This document shows positions 2,579 to 61,443 of a DNA stretch of 64,000 nucleotides, piece after piece. The notes beneath the pieces were generated by a model that did not search any database, had not been told where the DNA came from, and saw only the letters and a list, made by a program, of their open reading frames with translations. Position 1 is the first letter of the stretch. Each line of letters opens with the position of its first letter. The position numbers were made by a program, and so were the translations under genes. The stretch covers positions 248,001-312,000 of the forward strand of contig JAQGDQ010000196.1 in assembly GCA_030141605.1 (NCBI GenBank), in the 5' to 3' direction. The stretch comes from Tubiluchus corallicola (lineage: Eukaryota > Animalia > Priapulida).

Positions 2579-4326
2579 GTTGGACTTTATGAGGACTATG
2601 GTAGAGCCTTTTTCTTCTTGTGTTTACGTCGTTCATGCACTTTCAGCTTAGGGCTACTTTATTTGAATTTACTGTCAAACAGTCAACTGATAAGACACAC
2701 ATCTGCAAGAACTGAACTGTGTTAATACAGGCTATGCTGTCTTCAGACAAGCTTTATGCCCAGTTGACTTGTGCACAAATAAACATTCTCGTTTTACAAT
2801 AACTAATTAGAAATGAAGCAGTCAAAAATACGAAACCTAATGCAATGATGTTCTTCATCAATTTCCAAAAACAAATCTAATTTGAGTCTCACATCTCTAG
2901 TCTTCAAGATCGATTTGAATCTAAATTTTTAATTCATCTAATTTTCAAAATTTGCTGAATTTGAATCTTGTTAGATGTGGAATTTGAATCATAAGAATTT
3001 CATATAAATAACAGTTTTAAACAGACTGTTCAAAAGACTGTTGAAAAAATTATGTAAAAATCATTGACATTACAATTTCTTCTGCAATGATTACTCCTGG
3101 ATGAGTTACAAAACAGTCTGACATCAATCCAAACTGAACTGTTGTCTTGAAAATTTTCTTCACTCCTAGTAGTCTTACTACAGCATCACCAGCATTTTTA
3201 TGACAGTATTTCCTAAAATCGAGCTAATAACTCATTTTTCCTATCTACATCACAAATGTGTTACTAGAATAGTGGGTTATATATTACAGTAAGTGCTCAC
3301 TTAAAGACACTAATGCATGCCAGCAAAACACGATGTTAAGGGGAACATCATTATATGAAACAATGCATTCCATAGAAAACAACGTAAAAGCTTTCAGTTG
3401 TGTTCCTCACCCAAAGTTCAATAATGCTTGGTTTAGCAAGAGCGGTCACTAAGTTGCATTGCAGGACAAAAAATCAATAATGCTTAGCTATGTAAAGCTT
3501 TCATTTGCTTTGCCCAACAAAAATCAATAGTACTTCGGCATAAATCAAACACTTCATGGATTTTATCCTTTATTACTGACAATTTTTAACTAAAAGTTAA
3601 ATTGTTAAAGTTAAAGAGAGAACTGAAGTTTGCAGTGAAAATTCAATCTTTCATGCATGCATCTTACTCTGATTGATCCCCTTATGCTATTTGTTCCTCC
3701 TTTTTTCATATCATGCATAGTCTCCATGTTTTTTCTGTTAAAGCTTTTTTTCAACACTGTAAGGCATTAGCAACACAATGTCTCACTTCTGAGCTTCGCT
3801 CTGTTTCTGGATTATTTTCTCAAAAAAATTTCAAATCCAGCACCATACCGTGTTTTAAAAGCTTCTTGCAGATGTCTAACTCTAGCCATTTTTGTTTTGC
3901 ACTCCTGAGAAGTATTTCTAGTATAGCTTTTCCAGCAACATAAATGCAAATGAGGTGAAGGTAGCTATAATTAACCAAGTAATGTAACATCAATCAGCGC
4001 TATCAATTAGCGAGTAATCAGCAAGGAGTCAACGATGCCTGCTAGGTAGGGCAAATTGTCGAATTGTACTAAGGTGGTTTCTGTTAATAGGGCTTCTCTG
4101 TGAAATGCGAGTGCAGTAACTAAAATTTCAGTGCTTGAAGGCCAAAAAATTGTCGTTAAGATGAAATGTTCGTCGTTGAGTAATAAAAGTTGTCAAAAGG
4201 TCAGCTTCGTTAAACAAAAAGTCGCTAGGTGAGGTGTCATCAGGCAAGGACTTACTGTATCTAATATTTGAAATAATTGAGAATCTGCATATTATTTGCA
4301 GAATAGTATAGTATGCTATGTTTTAG

Positions 4327-5224
4327 GTCTAGTTCTGGTGTACCAAAGGACTGGATGTCTCCCGTTATGGCAGCTATTGAAAGTGAGGAGGGTCTGTATG
4401 CATCGGGTGACTCAGGGATTGCTGAAAATGATGACTTTAATCCTGCTGAATATCGAGAAAATTTTCAAAATCGCCTACAGAATGATGATAGTCTTCTTGA
4501 CTACAGCTTGCGTAAAACATTGGGCGCAACTTCAGAGACTTCCAATAACTCAGAAACGGATATTAATGCCCGCACACCAGAAAGTACCGACCTTGGAGTT
4601 GCCTCAGATGTTGGCGCAGAAGAAGCATGGCATGATTTCGAGGATGGATTGTCAGAATCAAAGGGACCTGACTCATTTGAGATTGCTTTTCGATTACGCA
4701 ATGCTTCTATGGTGGCTTCACTACAGGAAGATCAAATTACCAAGGACATTTTGTCTTCAGGAACTGAAACTAGAGGTGCTCTAAATACTAATGAGGAAAA
4801 AGGATTTAATTGTGAAACTAGCCAAAAATTAGAGTTTGACATAAGCAATGAAGCCAGTGAGAAGGCACATTCTGGTGCAAGCCAAGAAGCGTGTGACAAA
4901 CTAGAATGTGGCATGACTGATGGAGACACGGAGAAATCACAACATGGTGTAAGTGAAAAAACTCCTTATGATGAAACCAGTAAACAATCAGGCAACGATG
5001 TGAGTAAAGAAGCCAGTGAAAAGCTTGATTATGATGTGAACAGGGAAGCCAGTGAAAAGCCTGATTGTGATGTAAGCAAAGAAGCCATTGAAGAACCTGT
5101 TCATGATGTAAGCAAAAAAGCCAGTGAAAATCCTGATATTGATGTAATCAACAAAGCCAGCAAGAAAACAAATTTTGAAGAGCTAGAACATAGTGATTCA
5201 GATTTGGAAGAAGGTTATGTGTAA
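4327..5224 (+). CDS. Putative alternative terminal exon of the PPM1H-type gene, encoding a ~300-aa acidic Ser/Glu/Asp-rich tail
   Basis: 303-aa ORF in AT-rich DNA. Acceptor ttttag|G at 4326/4327 is phase-compatible with the donor after 2574 (AA|G = Lys) and joins the ORF in frame. Confidence 0.7.
4801..5180 (+). repeat. Degenerate 36-bp (12-aa) coding tandem repeat
   Basis: Units DISNEASEKAHS, DVSKEASEKLDY, DVNREASEKPDC, DVSKEAIEEPVH, DVSKKASENPDI, DVINKASKKTNF; DNA core gatgtaagcaaagaagccagtgaaaag. Confidence 0.85.
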
Positions 5225-13745: not shown

Positions 13746-14330
13746 TTAAAGGAAAGCCAGAACTCATCTTAAACTATAGCTCAAAACAATCTACCCTATA
13801 ATAATAATATTGAAAGGAAACATACTATTTCTTTCAATACTGATTTACGCAAAAGAATTATTACTACAGAAACGTAATTTCGCATTCGCGCTGTTAGTTC
13901 TTCGTTGTTACTGCTGTTACATGCATTTCGCAATTCGCTAATTACATCGGAAGAGCGCCTCTCAGTTCAAATGTGTTCAATTTTGACGTAGTGCAGACGT
14001 CCGAGAGCTACTGGCAAACTAGAAATTTGAATTTAAAACTTAAAATTTGCTGAGTTTTTGTGTATCACGCTGAATGTTGTACAGTAACACTGTACTTCAA
14101 TTTTCGCTTTCGCAAACAGGTGCACCACGCTCGTGAAATGTTTTTGTGCTGTTGAAAATTATGTTCAGTTGTGATGTCATCACTAGTTAGGCTCGCTTGT
14201 CGTTAATTAGGTTATAGTCTATTATTTAAGTACCAGAAATACTTTGGTAGTGCTATAGGTCTTAAAATGTGTACTTTTACCGTACCTCAAAATGGGGTAG
14301 GATATATAAATTCACACAGTTTTTCTTTAA
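13746..14330. mobile_element. TTAA-flanked non-autonomous DNA transposon (Kolobok-like MITE)
   Basis: TTAA|AGGAAAG...TTTTCT|TTAA termini. The last ~290 bp align with 36235-36527 and more weakly with 36600-36918. Confidence 0.55.
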
Positions 14331-36234: not shown

Positions 36235-36918
36235 CTTATAATTTGCCAAGTTTTTATATATCACACTGTATATTGTACAGTAGCACTGGACTTCAATTTT
36301 TGTTTTTGCAGACATATACAACACACACGTGCAATGTTTGAACTATTGAAACTTATGTTCAATTGTGATGTCATCACTAGTTGGGCTCGTTTGCTCTTCA
36401 TTAAGTTTTTAATCTATTATTTAATTATCAGAAACACACTGTGACATCATTACCGATGTTAAAATGTATTCTTTTTCTGCAGTTCAAAACGGGGTGTGTT
36501 ATGAAAAATCATCCTGTTTTTCTTTAATCATGTCATGATGGCAGCATTGTTAGATTATTCATTAATCCAGTGATGAGCTTAAAATGTGAAATTGTCAATT
36601 TAAATTTGCGATGTTTTGTATTTAATTGTCAGTCTTATACAGTAGTGCCAAGCTTCAATTTTTGCTTTTGAAAATGTGTGAAACTCTCATGATGGTTTCT
36701 ACATTTAGAAAAATTTTCTCACTTGTAAACTCACCGTTACCTATGCTTACCTGCTGTTAATGAATTTTTTCATATAATTTCCGTAGTGCTCCCGTAGGTA
36801 TAATATCACAGTCTCAATGTAAATCAGAAACTTTTGGTAATTATTGTAGTTAATAAAATGTATGTCTGAGACCAGGTCAAAAGAGTTTGGTCTGAGAAAT
36901 CATACTATTTTCCTTTAA
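36235..36918. repeat. Two adjacent diverged copies of the Kolobok-like MITE end seen at 14040-14330
   Basis: Shared gtacagta...cttcaatttt...tcagaaa...ctttaa; tgtgatgtcatcactagtt is also in the first copy. Copies end in TTAA at 36527 and 36918. Confidence 0.6.
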
Positions 36919-48540: not shown

Positions 48541-48993
48541 AATCATTAAATTTCAGTGATCACATGGAAACCCGAGCCAAGATATCAGATCTTACCACCA
48601 TAAGGCATCATGTGATTAAGTAAAAACATAGAAGGTATCAATAGTGACTTGTATAATTCTGAGAAAAGCACACTCAACAGTTTCAGCTGAAGAAGCCCAC
48701 TGGTCAGACTGAGACTCAATACTGTCGAGATCTATTGTGGTCGTAAACATGTCAGAATCAAATTGTGATTTGATTTTAGCATATAATTTTAACAAAGCAG
48801 GGCTCCAATAGAAAGATGCATCCTTTATCTACACACTAATATAAAGAAAAGTTGAAACATACCTCCTATTCATAAAAAAATTACTGTTAGCGTCACGAGA
48901 ACAGACTAAGACCGAGCGATTTCCTGAAATGTTTTCATTTGGGAGTTAGCAGATAGCAATATTTTTATCTACTGCTGTGTGCCACAGCCTAGG

Positions 48994-49279
48994 TGTTTTG
49001 GATATAAGCACGTGGTGCCTCCTGGTGTTTGTTTTTCCTAGTTTAGACAGGTGAGCTAGGTCAGGAAATAGGCCATTGGCCTCATTTCACAGTTAGCATA
49101 TGAAAGAAGTGAGTCACCGGTATGCGGCAAAGATGTAAGTTTCATTTCTTCACATTTCGTCATGTCATATTATTATTAATTATCATTATACCAGTTACTT
49201 AATGTTTTGACGTTGGTTTAGCAGAAAGAATTTTTAATTTTTCTTCAGCTAAAACGAAGTCGAACGCATGTCGCGTACA
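48994..49279 (+). repeat. 5' LTR
   Basis: TGTTTTGG...CGTACA; 283/286 identical to 55709-55994. Contains CACGTG (49009), TGAGTCA (49110) and an intron-like segment at 49135-49248. Confidence 0.97.
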
Positions 49280-49361
49280 GTTTTATATCTCAGTCTGTGT
49301 ACCTAGAAGAGACGGCCATATTGCTTTCGAGAACAGAACACCTGGACAAGGGTAGTACAGC

Positions 49362-51600
49362 ATGGCTTCCGGGCAAGGACGAGATTTGTTGAGACTAAAT
49401 GAAGAACAGCTTCAGCAAAAAACCGTACAAGAGTTAAGAAAGTTGCTACGGGATAAGGGATTACAAGTCGCTGGAAGCAAAGCAGAATTAGTCCAACGAG
49501 TACTGGACAGCGAGATTACTGCAGAGGTAACCACGCCTACTTCAAAGAGTGAGAGTGTTAAAACGGCTCGTGACCAATCAGGCGAGGTGGGAGTGATGCA
49601 AACGGACAACACCACGTCCAGCAGTGTGAAAACTTCTGCAACAAACTTAAGCAGGTTTGATTTGCATGCCTTGAAAATTAAAGAACAGAAACTAAAATTA
49701 CAAGCCATGGAAATCAAACATTTGAGCCTGCAAAAGGCTAGTCAGGGTTCTGCTAGTTCAGATGTGGCTTCGCCTGTAGCCAAAGAAATATCAAGTGCAG
49801 AAAAGGTCAATGAGTGGATTGAAAAGTCACACAAAGATGTCACAGAAGTCTCGTCACCTGAAGGGCTCATCAAACCCGAAGCTTACGTTACTATGGCTAC
49901 CAATGATAAATACGCCATAGGTGCTCTAGTACTGGCTTCTTCGCTATGTAATGTTGGTATTACACTTAGTTTAGCGATATTAATTACAACTGGAATTTCT
50001 AAACCCATAATGACGCAGATAAGCGCCACCTTTGATCACGTGGAGCTTGTGGAAGCTATTGACAGTTCACATGTAAAAAGTCTACAATTACTAGGACGGC
50101 CCGAATTAAAGGTGACTTTTACAAAACTGCATTGTTGGAGGCTAACTCAGTTCTCAAAATTTGATTTTTGGATTCTGATGTAATTGTCCTGCAAAACATA
50201 GATGATTTATTTAGCTGGAACGAACTGTCAGCAGTTGCAGATATTGGCTGGCCTGATTGTTTTAATAGCGGACTTTTCGTTTTTGAACCTAATCTTAGCA
50301 CGTACAGTGAATTGAGGTCATTCGCTCAGTCAGATTCAAGCACATTCGACGGTGGAGAGCAAGGTCTACTAAACCAGTATTTTAAAGCCTGGAATACAGC
50401 TTTTGATAAACGATTGCCATACAGGTATAATGTAGCAGTAAAGCAGTTTCGAGAAAGTGTCAAGGTTGCTCATTTCATGGGTCCTAGTAAGCCCTGGGAC
50501 AGTATACGCAGCATTTATCACAAGCAAGTGGCGCCAGCTACAGGTAAAACAGACTTTGAATCTGAAATGTTAAATATTTGGTGGTCACTTTACATTCATG
50601 AGGTCGAACCAAACTGGCCTCATGAATTAGAACTAATAAATAAAGCTAATGTTCAGCAGCACATTCCTACCCGAACAAAACTCAGTCCTGATGCACCTGA
50701 ATTTGCCACTCGCTTACATGACAGGAGCAGTGTTCATAGAAAATTATACACATGATGACGGGGCGAGATATACCAGGCTTTTACAATTTTGCACGGGCGA
50801 AGCAAAACGGGTTGTCGAAAGTTGCAGTTATATGGACCCGCAGATCGCATACAGTCATGCTAAGCAAATGCTTATTGAACGTTTCGGGTCACCCTTTATT
50901 GTAACACAAGCGTGGTTGGCTAAAATAAATGAGTTTGCAGTCATAAAAATAATGAAAAGGAAAAACTCAGGGAATTTTCTGACTTGATGATTGGTTGTGT
51001 AGAGACATTAAAGGCCATGGACAATTTAGCCGAAATAAATACACAAACAAGTTTGCTTCAAGTCATTAAGAAACTCCCATTCCGTTTGCAAGACAAATGG
51101 AGAGACGTTGTTACCAAGTTAAATAAACATGATGGCAGAAATCCTACAATTTACGACGTGGTGGGATTTGTCAAAGAGGCGACTGAAAAAATAAACCATC
51201 CCGTGTTTGGTGACCTTGCAACCGGTGGTCAAATGAACATTACAAAACGCAAGAATAAATTAGCAACTAGGAATTTCGCATGCACTACCTTTCGAACAAG
51301 AAGTTCATCCAGAGAAGAAAAATCGAGTCAAACAGGCGGAACGCCAAAGGATAGAAAATTAAGCAGTAGAGATGTCAGAAAATGTGTTCTGCAACTCAGC
51401 CGAGCATGTTTCTCTAAAAAACTGTGAACAGTTTAAAGACAAGTCGGAAGAAGAGAGACTACAGTTTGCTCGGAAAAGTCGCTTATGTTTTAACTGCTTA
51501 CAGAAAGGGAACCAAAGAGCTGGAAGCTGTTACAAACCAGGCTGTACAAGACAGGGATGCAGAAGAAAACATTCTGCTCTGCTTCATGACGCTCTGGAGA
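49362..51600 (+). pseudogene. Bel-Pao Gag region (SAP domain, coiled coil, glycogenin domain, DUF1759-like capsid region, three Zn knuckles), frameshifted
   Basis: SAP at 49410-49508 (LQQKTVQELRKLLRDKGLQVAGSKAELVQRVLD); RYTRLLQFCTGEAKRVVESC...LIERFG; KKLPFRLQDKW...HPVFG; knuckles CNSAEHVSLKNC, CFNCLQKG...C, CTRQGCRRKHSALLH. Frame breaks near 50163, 50720, 50950 and 51385. Confidence 0.9.
49878..50611 (+). pseudogene. Captured intronless glycogenin-like glycosyltransferase (GT8) domain; a 1-nt frameshift at ~50163 in this copy
   Basis: EAYVTMATNDKYAIGALVLASSL...LLGRPELKVTFTKLHCWRLTQFSK / FLDSDVIVLQNIDDLF...DIGWPDCFNSGLFVFEP...FDGGEQGLLNQYF...LPYRYN...KVAHFMGPSKPW...LNIWW is colinear with animal glycogenin (AFVTLTTND, RPELGVTLTKLHCW, MDAD, GWPDCFNSG, FDGGDQG, VVHFLGRVKPW). 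Confidence 0.95.
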
Positions 51601-54443
51601 AGTGGGCTCCTTCCAATGGCGAGAGGTCAACAAATGTTGAAGCAACAAGTTGCGCTGTCACTACAACCAAACTGTCAACAAGGGCTGTGCTCCCCATCAC
51701 TCCTGTAAAGGTACAGGTGCAAGGCGGACGTCCAATTCAGACAATGGCTTTGTTGGACCCAGGATCAACTAATACGTTCTGTTCCAAGGCCATATATGAT
51801 GAGCTGGGAGCTGTTGGCAAGAAACAAGTCGTGTCACTGACTACAATTGAAAAGAAGCATTCAAAAATACATACTTCTGTGACCAAGATGTACGTCAGTA
51901 AGTTGGATGGATCAAACAAAATGAAACTTCCCTTTGTCTTTGTCAGGCCATCTTTGATGTTGGATGTGACTGACTATTTGGTAGACGAACAAGACATTAG
52001 TAACTGGCCTCATCTCAAAGATGTTCCTTTGACGCTAGCTGATTCACGTGAACTGCAGCTCGGGTTAATTATAGGACAAGACGTCTCTGATGCATTAATG
52101 CCTTTAGAAACACGCTGTGGGCCAAGAGGAGTTCCGTATGCAACAAGGACTAGACTTGGATGGACATTAAATGGCCTGATAGGAGGCGGCAATGAGGACA
52201 CTAAAAAGCTGTCAAACAACCTTCTTCAGGCAGAACAGGTTACCAGCCAGCGACAAGTCGAAAAATTTTGGAAAATGGACGCTGTTGACGATAGCATACA
52301 GTACTCCCATGACGATAAGTTGGCGCTGAGCATTTGGGAGAAGTCCATCACCAAAAGAAATGGTCACTACGAATTGGAGATACCTTTTAAGTCTAATGAT
52401 GACAACATTCCTGACAGTTTTCAAATGGCTTCAAAGAGGTTGGCAAGCCTTCGCTGTAGACTCAGCAAGAATAAGTTGTTGCATGAAAAATACTCCCAAG
52501 CCATGGCTGATCTGCTCCAAAAGGGATACGCAGAAGAAGTTGTTGAACATGATACGAATGTTGCAACATGGTACTTGTCACATTTTCCAGTTTTTAATGA
52601 GAACAAACCCGAAAAAACTAGGATCGTATTTGATTGTTCGGCAACAGAAGACGCAGTCTCTCTCAACATGTTGGCACTACAAGGTCCAGATCTGACTAAT
52701 AAATTGCTTGGTGTCCTGCTATGCTTTAGAAAGTATCCAGTAGTAATCATGGCTGATGTTCGTGAGATGTTTCACCAGGTGTACGTAGCACCGAAGAATA
52801 GGGACATGTTGAGATTTCTCTGGTGGAATGATGGAAACCTAGATGCGCCACCCTCCATATTTCGAATGACAGTCCACCTTTTTGGCGGTGTGTGGTCGCC
52901 CAGCGTAGCTTCATTTGCTCTCCAACAGACAGCTAGAGATAACGTCAACTGTTTTGATGAGCATGCATTAAATACGGTGGTACATAGCTTCTATGTCGAC
53001 GACCCCTTTAAATCTGTGGAAACTGCAAAAGAACCAATCGATTTGATGTCAAAATTAATACAGATTCTAGACACTGGAGGTTTCCACTTGACCAAATGGA
53101 TGAGTAACGACAGAGACGTATTAGCATGTGTGCCAATTGAAGAACGAGGAAAGAACATTAAGAATCTTGATCTAACCCAGGACGATCTACCAAATGAACG
53201 AGCCTTAGGGGTTAAATGGGATGTCAAAAGCGATATACTTGGCATTCAGGTTAAGCTGCGAGAAAAGCCAAGCACCAAGCGGGGACTACTTAGGTCATTA
53301 GCAAGCACCTATGATCCCCTAGGCATGGTCTCGCCTTTCATTTTACAAGCGAAAAGACTGTTTCAGAACGAATGCCGGATCCAGGAAAAATCATGGGATG
53401 ATAGACTGGAAGAAGAGACTGAGAAAAGTTGGGATAAATGGAAATCTGATTGTCCTGCACTAGAATACTTTACGCTAGACAGATGCCTGAAGCCAAGAGA
53501 TTTTGGAAGAATTGCTGACTTGCAGCTGCATCACTTCAGCGATGCATCCCAGTATGCTTACGGCACTGTAACTTATGCACGGATGGAAAATGCTGATGGA
53601 GTTGTACACACAGCATTTGTAATGGCAAAGTCTAGGCTAGCACCTATGAAAAGCCTAACCATACCACGCCTTGAGTTGTGCACAGCAGTATTAGCCTCAA
53701 CTGTCGACAAACAACTGAGAAGAGAATTGTCCATACCCATCAGCGAGTTCGTGTTTTGGTGTGACAGCACTATAGTGCTTCAATACATACGCAACACCAC
53801 AAGACGTTTCCATACTTTCGTGCAAAATAGAGTGACTACCATACTAGAAACTTCGTCGCCAGTTCAGTGGCATTATATCAGTACCGCAGATAATCCAGCT
53901 GATGACGTATCCCGAGGAATGGACGCCAATGCCTTAGTAAAATCTCAGCGTTGGAAATATGGTCCTAGTTTTCTGCGAAAAGCCCAACATGAATGGCCGC
54001 AGCATGATCCGAGCAAAGAAAATGATGAACTTAACGACGATAAAGAAGTCAAGCAGACGACATGTTCCACTACTGTAAAACACATACAGGATAGAAACGA
54101 CACAATTAGCAAGCACATTGAACATTTTTCGTCATTTTACAACCTCAAGAAAGCAGCAGCTTGGATTCTTCGTCTGAAGGACATTTTGCAAAAGAAGATC
54201 AGAGGAGAAAAACCTGAAGTACCTCCAAAGTTAACAGTGCAAGAGCTGACAAGAGCTCAAGATGCATTAGTAAAATTCGTTCGGACTCAGAACTTTGGCA
54301 TGGAATATAAGGCGCTTACACAAAAATCTGCTAAATTGATGCGCATCCCTAAATCAAGCAGGCTACGAAAACTTGATCCGTTCATTTGCGAGAAGGGTTT
54401 GCTACGTGTTGGTGGACGACTGAAGGCGCCAGGCACCCTATGA
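51372..54443 (+). CDS. Bel-Pao polyprotein segment: Zn knuckles, aspartic protease, reverse transcriptase, RNase H
   Basis: ALLDPGSTNTF; KTRIVFDCSA...QGPDL...MADVREMFHQ...HLFGGVWSPS...FYVDD; LHHFSDASQYAYG, TIPRLEL, WCDS, NPADDVSRG; GLLRVGGRL. Confidence 0.95.
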   Translation: MSENVFCNSAEHVSLKNCEQFKDKSEEERLQFARKSRLCFNCLQKGNQRAGSCYKPGCTRQGCRRKHSALLHDALEKWAPSNGERSTNVEATSCAVTTTKLSTRAVLPITPVKVQVQGGRPIQTMALLDPGSTNTFCSKAIYDELGAVGKKQVVSLTTIEKKHSKIHTSVTKMYVSKLDGSNKMKLPFVFVRPSLMLDVTDYLVDEQDISNWPHLKDVPLTLADSRELQLGLIIGQDVSDALMPLETRCGPRGVPYATRTRLGWTLNGLIGGGNEDTKKLSNNLLQAEQVTSQRQVEKFWKMDAVDDSIQYSHDDKLALSIWEKSITKRNGHYELEIPFKSNDDNIPDSFQMASKRLASLRCRLSKNKLLHEKYSQAMADLLQKGYAEEVVEHDTNVATWYLSHFPVFNENKPEKTRIVFDCSATEDAVSLNMLALQGPDLTNKLLGVLLCFRKYPVVIMADVREMFHQVYVAPKNRDMLRFLWWNDGNLDAPPSIFRMTVHLFGGVWSPSVASFALQQTARDNVNCFDEHALNTVVHSFYVDDPFKSVETAKEPIDLMSKLIQILDTGGFHLTKWMSNDRDVLACVPIEERGKNIKNLDLTQDDLPNERALGVKWDVKSDILGIQVKLREKPSTKRGLLRSLASTYDPLGMVSPFILQAKRLFQNECRIQEKSWDDRLEEETEKSWDKWKSDCPALEYFTLDRCLKPRDFGRIADLQLHHFSDASQYAYGTVTYARMENADGVVHTAFVMAKSRLAPMKSLTIPRLELCTAVLASTVDKQLRRELSIPISEFVFWCDSTIVLQYIRNTTRRFHTFVQNRVTTILETSSPVQWHYISTADNPADDVSRGMDANALVKSQRWKYGPSFLRKAQHEWPQHDPSKENDELNDDKEVKQTTCSTTVKHIQDRNDTISKHIEHFSSFYNLKKAAAWILRLKDILQKKIRGEKPEVPPKLTVQELTRAQDALVKFVRTQNFGMEYKALTQKSAKLMRIPKSSRLRKLDPFICEKGLLRVGGRLKAPGTL

Positions 54444-55563
54444 TATTACCGAGAAAGCATAAGCTGTCAGAGCTAATCATTCGTCATTACCACGAAACGA
54501 ACGGCCACATTGGCAGGGAACATGTCATAGCTTTAGTAAGAAATGAATTTCGGATAATTCATGCAAGAGCCTTGGCACGCAAAGTCCTGTACGAATGCCG
54601 ACATTGCAGGCTTCGCAAGCCATCTTTCCTTGATCAAAAGATGGCAGATTTGCCTATTGACAGACTACAGCCATCAGACGCTTTTACCACTATTGGCATT
54701 GATTGTTTTGGCCCGATACAGACCAAGAGAGGTCGCTCACACATTAAACGCTATGGAGTCATCTTTACATGCCTAGCTACACGCAGTATTCACTTGGAAG
54801 TCCTATTTGACATGTCCACTGATTCGGTTATAAAGGCGATTAACAGATTTTGCTGCCGCCGAAGGAAGCCAGACAAAATCAGGTCAGATTGTGGGACTAA
54901 TTTTGTAGGAGCAAGCAGAGAGCTGAGAAAGTCTATAGCCGAGTGGAACAATGACGTCATACATTCAGAGCTTCTTCAGCGGCAAATAGAATGGCAATTC
55001 AACCCACCAAGAGCCCCACACATGGAAGGTGTTTGGGAGTCTCTCATTAAGAGTGTGAAGAAGATTCTCTTTCCAACGAACAAACCTTGGATGATGAAGG
55101 CTTGGCAACCCTGTTTTGTATAGTTGAAAATATAGTTAATAGCAGACCGCTAACTACAGTTTCTGACGATGTTGACGACTTCAATCCGTTGACTCCGAAT
55201 CACTTTCTTCAGATCAGCGCAGTTCCAAACCTGCCTTTGGGAAAGTTTTGTCAGGCAGATCTCTTTCGACGAAAGTGGAGACAAATACAGTATCTCTCGG
55301 ATATCTTTTGGCGCAGATGGTTGACTGAATATTTGCCCACTCTACAGACTCGAAGCAAATGGAACAAGGAGCAGAAGAATGTTGAAATAGGAGACATCGT
55401 ATTAGTTCTGGATGAGACACCAAGGAATCACTGGATGCTAGGACGGATCATTGAAGCACGGAAAAGCAGTGATGGACTAGTGAGAAGTGTGATGTTGAAG
55501 ACTAGAGATGGGACTCTAAAACGACCAATTCATAAAATAAGTTTAATCGAATGTAACAATTAG
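54430..55563 (+). pseudogene. Bel-Pao integrase (HHCC, DDE core, DUF5641-like tail), split by a frameshift at ~55075
   Basis: HPMILP, HETNGH...CRHC, GIDCFGP, RSDCGTNFVG, GVWESL, VNSRPL, FWRRWLTEYLPTLQTRSKW, RPIHKI. Confidence 0.93.
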
Positions 55564-55708
55564 TTGATTTTGTTAAGCATTCATAAACTGTATGTTTAAG
55601 TTAAACTTTGAAGTAGATGTATGTCAATTTAGTCAGTCATGATATGTTATTACACTGTTGGTTTCCTTTAATTTTGTAAATGCTGCAGGAGAGCATTTAA
55701 GGAGGCAG

Positions 55709-55994
55709 TGTTTTGGATATAAGCACGTGGTGCCTCCTGGTGTTTGTTTTTCCTAGTTTAGACAGGTGAGCTAGGTCAGGAAATAGGCCATTGGCCTCAT
55801 TTCACAGTTAGCATATGAAATAAGTGAGTCACCGGTATGCGGCAAAGATGTAAGTTTCATTTCTTCACATTTCGTCATGTCATATTATTATTAATTATCA
55901 TTATACCAGTTACTTAATGTTTTGACGTTGGTTTAGCAGAAAGAATTTTTAATTTTTCTTCAGATAAAACGAAGTCGAACGCATGTCGTGTACA
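55709..55994 (+). repeat. 3' LTR, preceded by a polypurine-tract-like aaggaggcag
   Basis: Direct repeat of the 5' LTR, followed by TSD CTAGG. Confidence 0.97.
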
Positions 55995-56644
55995 CTAGGT
56001 AATAGGAATGCTTCAGAAAAAAGAACCAAACTGTAAACACTGAAAAGTTAAAAAGAGCTTCAGATGAATTTTTTCAATGTGCGCCATTTTACAGTGTCTG
56101 TGTGGGCCAGTAAGTGGCGTACTCTACCGGCGTTGTTTTGTAACTTTTGATTTTCTTTCGAAACGCGGCACAAATAGCAAAGAAGGGTTGCAGTTTATAC
56201 AATGAAAATTGGAACATACGATACTTTGAGGCTTCATACTGTACAAAAAATATGACTGTATGAAGAAGAAAGCCAATGTTCTAGCACATTAAGTGCTTGT
56301 TAAGAACAATAATTTTCTTGCTTGTAGTCCTTCGTTGTTTTGAATACATGACTTTTTGTATCATGCAACTTTGAAGGTTTTTGACTTTCCAGCAGATTTC
56401 ACTTTAAAGATGTTTTCACGTGTCAGCTCCAAGATGCGTAAAGATTAGGAAACTTGAAACTTTGAAGCCCTGTACATTTCCTTGAGTACTGTTTCTTTCA
56501 GTTGCTCAGCACATATATACACTCACATACTGACTGACCTTACTGACTAACCAGCTAACTAGCTATGATTTACTTAGTGTCGGTTAGTTATTTAATTAGT
56601 TAGTGTTGGTCTAGCTAAGCTAATCAGAGAGTCAATCAATTAGT

Positions 56645-59779: not shown

Positions 59780-61443
59780 AAAATATATAATTATGCTGAC
59801 AATAGGCCGTTATAAGCAGGACAGAATGTGCTCCAAACATTAAACAAACTAGATTCTAATTGTAGCAAAGTGTTGAACTGGTTTGAAGATAATAGCATGA
59901 AAGCAAATTCAGAAAAATTCCACGTTGTTGCCATTGGAAATAAATCACAAGCACTAAATCTAAACTTCGACATTGACGCAAAAAATCAAAATTAATGTGA
60001 CAATCAAATAAAAATCTTGGGTACATGTTTGCAAAATCCAATATAAAAACAAGTAGAAGTCCTTCCTAACTGTAAGTAGAAGAATTGCAGCATAATTTAT
60101 TATTTATATCATTCTTTCACCCTGTTAAAGGAAAAGCGGATAATTGTGTAAACATTAGTTCAGAATAAAGAATGCTCTAAAGTGATGAAAACTACAAAAG
60201 CTTTTTTTAAATCAAAGCTTAGATTAAATAATAATTACCTCGCATACTCAAATTTCGTTAAACTTTCAAAGCCACGCGCGGCTCAGTGATTCTTCTAAGA
60301 TTGGCAGCGGCGCGTTTTTGTCACGTTAGCGTGGTCGATAAATAGAAGGCGGTACCATGGTAACAATGATCATGAACTACAGTGTTAGTTTCTCACGTCA
60401 TATGGATGTAGAGCCCATTTTCGTGACATCATACGTTTAAGCAGTAACACTTACGCAAACGTGCTTAACGCGCAAGGGAGATGTCTGCCATTGCACAAAC
60501 TGTATTAGTTTCTGACGTAAGCAATAGCTGCGTTCGGTTGCCGTTAATTAACTTTCTAAGCTAATTATTCAAATATAAGAAACATTTGCTAACTTTGTAG
60601 GCAAGAAAATGTGTATTTTGGACAGTAAATTAAAATGAGATTGAGTCTAAACAATCGTCCAGCCTTCCTTTAAAGTTTAATTACTGTCTGCCTGTATGGC
60701 ATTTTAGTAGTTACGCAGTAACGAACAAACGTGAAAAAATTTAAGAAAGGGCACTGAGATTTACCTACAGTGATTATGCCTTAAGTTATGAAACATGCTA
60801 AACAAATTTAAAAATTCGTTAATTCTTTGCGTATAAGAACTTTAGCCTTAGAAATATTTAAAATTCTAAACAAAGAAGGAGCTAGCTACTTATACGACCT
60901 GATGGCAATTAAAGAATCTAAGTATTCATTCCGATATATTAAAATTACAAATGTACCACGCATCAAATGCACTAAATACGGCTAAACTCTGCGACATTCT
61001 GCCGCAGTTCGCGGAATCAATTGCCAAACGATAAGCGAAATGCTTAATGTAGTTATGAACTTATGGTATGTTTCAAAATATAAATTCGTGGAAAGATGAC
61101 GAATATAAATGTACTGCATGTCGCAGAAATTGAAAATTTTATGGTTCTGATTAAGCTGTACTTCCAAACTATGAACTGTTTTCGAATGTGATTTTAACTC
61201 GATTAATTAAAGGCGTTGATTTTAGCATCTAAGTTAGCATTTATGATTTTAAAGTCTGCTAGGATCCAAAGTGTTTTATTGTAGCAGTATAATTGTAAAA
61301 TCTTTTTATCGCCTAAGCACTATTTTTACTAGTAGACTGGCTTTGTAATATATGTCGGCTTAAAAGTTATTAGGAGTTAGTGTTTTTTGTGTTTATGTAA
61401 AACCCGACTTTAAATAAAATTTGATTTATTTTGATTGATTTGA
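59780..61443 (+). mobile_element. Decayed LINE (Crack/L2/CR1-group) 3' part with a (TTTGA)-type tail, interrupted by a MITE
   Basis: YNYADN..., VLNWFEDNSMKANSEKFHVVAIG, IKILG; resumes ~60685 with CLPVWHF...ERALRFTYSDY...CTKYG; ends aataaaatttgatttattttgattgatttga. Confidence 0.75.
60125..60673. mobile_element. TTAA-flanked MITE (Kolobok-like) nested in the LINE
   Basis: TTAA|AGGAAAAGCGGA...TCCAGCCTTCCT|TTAA imperfect terminal inverted repeats. Confidence 0.65.

Follow-up and report, generated by a model that had tools for sequence, protein, structure and literature searches.

A spliceosome-assembled self-primer proposed for an animal branch of BEL/Pao retrotransposons

How does an LTR retrotransposon start its first DNA strand when the bases behind its 5' LTR do not resemble a tRNA site? 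This question is raised by an element of 7.0 kb that spans positions 48994-55994 of the window, the whole 64-kb stretch of DNA analyzed here, in which no tRNA gene was found. The feature of interest sits within the 5' LTR. An earlier note on this DNA had proposed that removal of an intron from the LTR assembles a primer out of the element's own RNA. On re-reading of the sequence, all its coordinates are correct.

The element is bounded by two LTRs of 286 bp with TG...CA ends (48994-49279 and 55709-55994) and is flanked on both sides by the 5-bp target-site duplication CTAGG (48989-48993 and 55995-55999). The two LTRs differ at three positions (49106/55821, 49249/55964 and 49274/55989). All other features are on the forward strand. 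The coding region is split into seven stop-to-stop pieces in the open-frame listing. Its first open frame (49356-50183) contains a SAP domain (ca 49410-49508) and then the start of a glycogenin-like segment. To our knowledge, a Gag does not usually open with a DNA-binding domain of the SAP type. The glycogenin-like segment is intron-less and occupies two frames within the gag region (49878-50506; glycogenin-1, E 2e-21; Glyco_transf_8, E 2e-10). It lies in frame behind the SAP domain and is broken in this copy. Contigs from run X1 cover the same region, so that it is possibly a family trait. The segment may be a host mRNA captured by the element. The remainder of the gag region, named by position (50640-51427), consists of two broken frames with no match in Pfam. 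Then come a protease-RT-RNase H frame of BEL/Pao type, assigned from Pfam and relatives (51363-54443; Peptidase_A17, E 1e-47), an integrase (H2C2, rve) followed by DUF5641, assigned from Pfam in two frames (54377-55563), and a polypurine tract directly 5' of the 3' LTR (55699-55708).

The order PR-RT-RH-IN with Pao-type domains, the size of the LTRs (0.2-1.2 kb in BEL/Pao), the length of the genome (4.2-10 kb) and the polypurine tract are those of the BEL/Pao superfamily. The integrase placed after RT, the TG..CA LTRs and the 5-bp duplication are likewise shared with Semotivirus. The search returned 1250 protein relatives at E <= 1e-50. The best listed are BEL/Pao proteins with 40-50% identity, and the named ones come from marine invertebrates and fish, so that a marine animal is the probable host. 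By its proteins, the element groups with BEL/Pao (Belpaoviridae). Elsewhere in the window, a dispersed 71-nt repeat, probably part of a short interspersed element, is present in three copies (14143-14213, 36337-36407 and 60484-60554), and a 305-codon open frame at 4307-5224 has no match in Pfam.

The 5' LTR ends with TACA at 49279. The next bases are GTTTTATATCT and TGG is absent, as the earlier note had pointed out. Within the LTR, a GT-AG intron of 114 nt (49135-49248) is delimited by the donor AGAT/GTAAGT at 49134/49135 and by the acceptor TTTTCTTCAG, which ends at 49248. It contains a pyrimidine tract, its A+T content is 75% compared with 56% for the LTR exons, and in 19 families it occupies the same position relative to the predicted primer. 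The 3' LTR carries the same intron (55850-55963). Splicing of this 3' copy joins 4 nt (55846-55849) to 7 nt (55964-55970), and the resulting junction is the exact reverse complement of 49280-49290 (11/11 pairs), a putative non-tRNA primer-binding site. In the 5' LTR, the corresponding pieces are the end of exon 1 (49131-49134) and the start of exon 2 (49249-49255), with C at 49249 leaving 10/11 pairs. The exact match of the 3' copy and the mismatch of the 5' copy both agree with what had been claimed. The unspliced sequence forms 7 contiguous pairs with 49280-49290, also as described, to which a weak alternative has to be added: the acceptor side can form up to 9 pairs with a 2-nt bulge (-7.7 versus -25.2 kcal/mol for the spliced duplex).

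All 179 GT..AG pairs of the 3' LTR were scored. The canonical intron is the single best with 11 nt, and two others reach 9. Of 300 shuffles, 2 reached 11. Taken alone, this single-element match is suggestive, not decisive. Two extra donor-like sites and a pyrimidine-rich acceptor are seen earlier in the LTR (49051-49092 and 49109). As candidates for the primer junction the donors at 49051 and 49109 were rejected, their match not being comparable. An extra upstream donor is likewise present in several relatives (L013, L075), and given these donors exon 1 may be further spliced. A second helix that would extend the duplex, between 49119-49127 and 49295-49303, has 9 bp including 3 G-U. It is present in the sequence and in the predicted fold, as had been proposed. 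Considered alone, it does not stand out from chance (shuffles were equally stable in 49 of 200 cases), and p < 0.05 was reached in only 1 of 17 tests, which counts against pairing within one RNA. We rejected it as independent evidence. The junction duplex closes a loop of 24 nt in the predicted fold (49256-49279). A small hairpin is seen in this loop at 49262-49275, where the LTR difference 49274/55989 preserves pairing (G-C or G-U).

A metagenome scan for relatives confirmed 438 loci, of which 80 were kept. They represent 61 families at 85% identity, not counting the window. Two scans of viral contigs found no relatives. Three sets of loci with readable LTR ends were compared. Set A consists of the window and of 10 loci whose LTR copies stop matching each other at the LTR end, so that this end is fixed independently. 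Each of these 11 elements has an exact complement of 10-15 nt that starts 0-4 nt after the LTR. In nine it spans a GT..AG junction (4-9 nt of exon 1 and 6-7 nt of exon 2), and for these the best contiguous match without splicing is 6-9 nt. In the other two (L017 and L060) the complement is contiguous and the LTR intron-less. As controls, cross-family pairs reach 10 nt in 5 of 110 cases, several of them with the related families of L016 and L062, and shuffles reach that length in 0-2 of 300 each. In set B, made of nine loci with a fixed 5' LTR start, all reach 10-15 nt, eight at a junction and L049 contiguously. Set C, nine contigs with overlapping ends, gave two junctions (13 and 12 nt), four contiguous 11-mers and one match of 9 nt within offset 5 (L004, for which 12 nt are seen by eye at offset 6). 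The two others (L027 and L038) are unreadable, the overlap being outside an LTR. In the scan of sets B and C, junction cross-pairs reach 10 nt in 8 of 306 cases. Chance alone also yields contiguous matches of 8-11 nt in that scan, which makes the contiguous cases of set C less convincing than those at a junction. Repeats of L026, L018 and L078 were rejected, as they are not LTR ends.

A blind scan, carried out without LTR boundaries, was readable for 59 loci; 21 of the 80 were dropped for too little upstream DNA. A match of 11 nt is reached by 18 of these 59 loci, with wrong geometry in 2 of the 18, versus 20 of 472 cross-pairs. Of the 38 loci without a match of at least 10 nt, most have no LTR in the contig. 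Blind-scan matches of L031, L046, L051, L069 and L075 were not counted owing to wrong geometry; L046, L051 and L075 have proper matches in the later scan of sets B and C. All scans together collapse to 26 families including the window, 19 of junction type and 7 contiguous, with donor patterns that were chosen after some sequences had been inspected and an acceptor rule that was relaxed for sets B and C, a choice that weighs against the primer interpretation. Some contigs show peculiarities of their own. Those of L011 and L060 are probably mosaics of copies, because L011 has no matching target duplication and the LTRs of L060 are 88% alike. L055/L056 is over its whole contig a head-to-tail tandem array of a BEL/Pao element with a period of 6138 nt at 100% identity, which may be an assembly artefact. 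The LTRs of L029, L023 and L065 end in TATA instead of CA.

Does the site behind the LTR change together with the junction? Twenty of the 26 families were tabulated. The first ten bases differ in 17 of the 20, with a mean of 5.5 differences, and all four Watson-Crick pair types occur at 6 of the 11 positions. The post-LTR bases thus change together with the splice junction, and the complementarity that the earlier note had predicted across related BEL/Pao families is borne out. The complement is exactly 11 nt long in 13 of 20 families (range 10-15), and the predicted primer ends with AC at its 3' side in 13 of 16. Such a length peak, with Watson-Crick pairs only, would be expected were the site rewritten from the primer during plus-strand synthesis, or were the duplex measured by an enzyme. 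The first bases of the 11-mers are mixed and by eye not initiator-like, as regards the idea that transcription starts there. The families are spread across the whole of a quick tree (75 rows, unrooted, with no named references and used for spread only), with RT-RNase H identities of 43.5-70% between families. According to ICTV, Belpaoviridae use an 18-nt site for tRNA-Arg or tRNA-Gly and are poorly understood (PMC8742986). None of the 20 tabulated families has such a site, and in all of them TGG is missing within 8 nt of the LTR end. In this respect they depart from BEL/Pao as described there, and the missing site speaks against the generality of that feature.

Is the intron spliced? It has the consensus donor, the pyrimidine tract and the AG of a GT-AG intron. 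In 16 families the donor reads GTAAGT (11), GTAAGC (3), GTGAGT (1) or GTACGT (1), the length ranges from 76 to 426 nt, and the A+T content exceeds that of the LTR exons in 15. Precise loss of an intron from DNA betrays a spliced RNA that went through reverse transcription. The 168-nt intron of L072 is missing, to the nucleotide, from its sister L065 (compared with L068 and L072). In L060, one LTR copy has the acceptor and the other the joined complement, the donor being outside the contig, so that the intron was probably lost exactly there too. These losses, in the DNA of relatives, indicate indirectly that the LTR intron is removed by splicing from RNA that goes on to reverse transcription. 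L017 has no intron, its LTRs are identical and a target duplication flanks it; it is young, and intron-less elements therefore move. Since intron-less families exist, at least one of them young, splicing appears to be needed only in the intron-bearing families. The proposal that the primer is assembled by splicing is hence supported by the cross-family complementarity and by intron loss, and does not hold universally. Two candidates may account for the persistence of the intron despite working intron-less sisters: the primer sequence of the 3' LTR may be kept from competing, or a 5' intron may raise expression.

The LTR signals are unevenly distributed. In 13 of 16 families an AATAAA or ATTAAA follows the acceptor and precedes the LTR end (in L044 it overlaps the primer), and in 2 the motif is upstream; the window element has neither motif after the acceptor. 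Three of 16 families have a TATA-like box at 130-170 nt 5' of the donor, namely the window element (49003-49008, 132 nt 5' of the donor) and L013 and L023 (140-170 nt), and none was found in the other 13. These boxes point to an exon 1 longer than in a Tf1-type primer at the RNA 5' end. For the window element, the box would predict a transcription start at ca 49030-49040.

Folding of spliced versus unspliced leaders was a check that the earlier note had proposed. When natural 5' leaders are spliced in silico, the junction duplex is predicted in 9 of 11, with a mean pair probability of 0.4-1.0 (0.82-0.96 for the window leader). The predicted spliced folds of L053 and L058 lack the duplex, which argues against pairing within one RNA. 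The whole duplex forms in 0 of 11 unspliced leaders, with one half partly formed in L012 and L005. Among three arrangements of the two-strand duplex, the spliced form has the highest stability in 16 of 17 rows; only L053 departs, whose coordinates were off by one in that comparison. A sister copy adds to this. Run X1 contains a multi-copy family ca 96% alike to the window element. One of its contigs, over 49209-49669, has the pairing base at 49249 and a change at 49291 that gives a duplex of 12 pairs, as read from the alignment register. In the second helix of the same contig, G-U is replaced by G-C through a change at 49296, and U-A by U-G through one at 49301. Contigs over 49108-49181 leave the exon-1 arm unchanged. 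All three changes are compatible with pairing; coming from a single lineage and from separate contigs, they give modest support. A joint that skips the intron is absent from the X1 contigs, and comparison with run X2 gave 1 and 0 records; neither outcome speaks for or against splicing.

From these data, we consider it quite probable that the splice junction is the primer, be it in cis or in trans. As to its manner of action, we lean slightly towards a BEL/Pao element that primes reverse transcription in cis, as Tf1 does, with a spliced piece of its own RNA and no tRNA. Pol II would start near the left LTR end, as the TATA-like box suggests, and the host spliceosome would remove the LTR intron, as the exact losses in relatives indicate. 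The junction would then fold back onto the 11 bases after the LTR, where complementarity and covariation are observed and the fold is predicted. By analogy with Tf1, the RNase H of the element would cleave where the duplex ends on its 3' side, 4-7 nt inside exon 2, which predicts a cut after 49255 in the window element. Reverse transcriptase would copy the remainder of the LTR (here the 24 nt of 49256-49279, the predicted template for minus-strand strong-stop DNA) and jump to the RNA 3' end. The poly(A) site of the RNA would have to lie past the primer sequence, where a signal is present in 13 of 16 families and absent in the window element. An unspliced 3' LTR copy would pass the intron on and a spliced one would lead to its exact loss; both outcomes are seen in DNA.

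Several points weigh against this cis scheme, besides the folds and the second helix mentioned above. Unlike in Tf1, the RNA is predicted to start before the primer, which would carry along ca 100 nt of exon 1 unless trimmed. The window element lacks a poly(A) signal after the acceptor and leaves no more than 24 nt for strand transfer. The scheme also needs two introns of the same sequence to be treated differently within a single RNA, for which we know no cause. The existence of intron-less families means that splicing is not universally required. Finally, the window copy itself is broken, with its seven frame pieces and its mismatch at 49249.

The unequal treatment of two introns is avoided if the primer comes from another molecule, a reading that we hold to be rather unlikely. 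A short spliced LTR transcript would pair with the primer site on a genome left entirely unspliced and be cut there, standing in for a tRNA. It could arise by early polyadenylation, from a solo LTR or by splicing from the 5' donor to the 3' acceptor. All complementarity data are fitted as well as in cis, and inheritance of the intron is explained more simply. The poly(A) signal after the acceptor in 13 of 16 families would lead one to expect short spliced RNAs, and in run X1 the depth of LTR pieces far exceeds that of internal pieces. Against it, the Tf1 precedent is described, in the accessible parts of PMC7175516, as an intramolecular pairing, 9 of 11 spliced leaders are predicted to adopt the cis fold, an A/U-rich duplex of 11 bp between two molecules is weak, and the same geometry works in intron-less families. 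The boldest form of the primer idea is that short spliced LTR RNAs, even from solo LTRs, serve in trans as self-made substitutes for tRNA.

The position of the pairing bears on another explanation, that the duplex is a regulatory structure only, which would hide the 5' poly(A) signal or mark spliced RNA for packaging or translation, with priming by something else. Poly(A) signals do lie inside the loop closed by the duplex in most families. The distance from the end of the pairing to the LTR end, however, is 0-5 nt in every case, as a primer requires; the peak length is 11, the pairs are purely Watson-Crick with mostly AC at the 3' end (13/16), and no other primer site is visible. We regard this explanation as improbable. 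Still less credible is priming without completed splicing, in which the post-LTR bases would bridge the exon ends over a looped-out intron, or the 3'-OH of exon 1 would prime after the first splicing step. Exon 1 with the second helix can pair on its own in the window element (-20.2 kcal/mol), and a bridge would draw both splice sites together. Nevertheless, the whole duplex is in none of the 11 unspliced folds, a primer made of exon 1 needs no covariation of the 4-7 bases of exon 2, yet these covary, and the same 11-nt geometry is kept in intron-less families. Half-tRNA primers exist in Copia lineages, according to the accessible parts of PMC6317226, and ICTV gives tRNA-Arg or -Gly for Belpaoviridae (PMC8742986), yet the 17 different sites that occur among 20 families, which match the family's own LTR rather than foreign ones, leave almost no room for an unusual tRNA half or other host RNA as primer with the LTR match as by-product or chance.

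Self-priming has been demonstrated for Tf1, with 11 nt, an RNase H cut and pairing within one RNA, as described in the accessible parts of two papers (PMC7175516, also PMC4600332). In these sources, Tf1/Tf2 of Schizosaccharomyces pombe, Tj1 and the Tf1/sushi group of Ty3/gypsy have, like the present families, no tRNA site and an 11-nt complement of the LTR just after it, in a geometry that fits an RNase H cut freeing a 3'-OH. In the intron-bearing families described here, the complement of about 11 nt appears only after splicing. The superfamily also differs, since the window element has BEL/Pao proteins and is not a Ty3/gypsy chromovirus, and priming is experimental in Tf1, whereas ours is read from sequence alone. 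In plants, self-priming was predicted from complementarity between LTR and primer site for Tcn1 (Gypsy) and for TAR/Houba/Osr-1 (Copia), hence also by inference and in more than one superfamily; the hosts are plants and an intron through the primer is not mentioned in the accessible parts of that source (PMC6317226). The fungal GalEa elements with their "conserved hairpin site" and the bivalve TRIMs are also LTR elements without a tRNA site. As far as the accessible parts tell (PMC5445492, PMC6934838), their hairpin is confined to the internal region, with no complement found in the LTR; the families described here have their pairing partner within the LTR, where splicing has first to create it. 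The accessible parts of PMC5445492, PMC6934838, PMC4558846, PMC3601003 and PMC7472051 describe other cases, without the feature of a splice-junction primer. Those of four BEL/Pao surveys (PMC554778, PMC3118150, PMC6238403 and PMC8220671) mention neither a tRNA or primer site nor an LTR intron. In the accessible parts of the literature, we came across neither a case of self-priming in BEL/Pao nor a primer that splicing creates.

It is probable that in a large and old animal branch of BEL/Pao the tRNA primer has been replaced by one that the spliceosome assembles from two LTR exon ends, splicing thereby gating reverse transcription. If true, this would be a fourth route to a minus-strand primer, after the whole tRNA, the half tRNA and the self-primer at the RNA 5' end, and the first that depends on host splicing. 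Self-priming would extend to the BEL/Pao superfamily, described by ICTV as tRNA-primed, and the many BEL/Pao elements without a visible primer site would be explained. The LTR intron would be a rare case of an intron surviving repeated reverse transcription, in which intron-bearing and intron-less sisters can be compared directly. The elements may be freed from the supply of tRNA and from silencing by tRNA fragments, and their replication would be tied to tissue-specific splicing.
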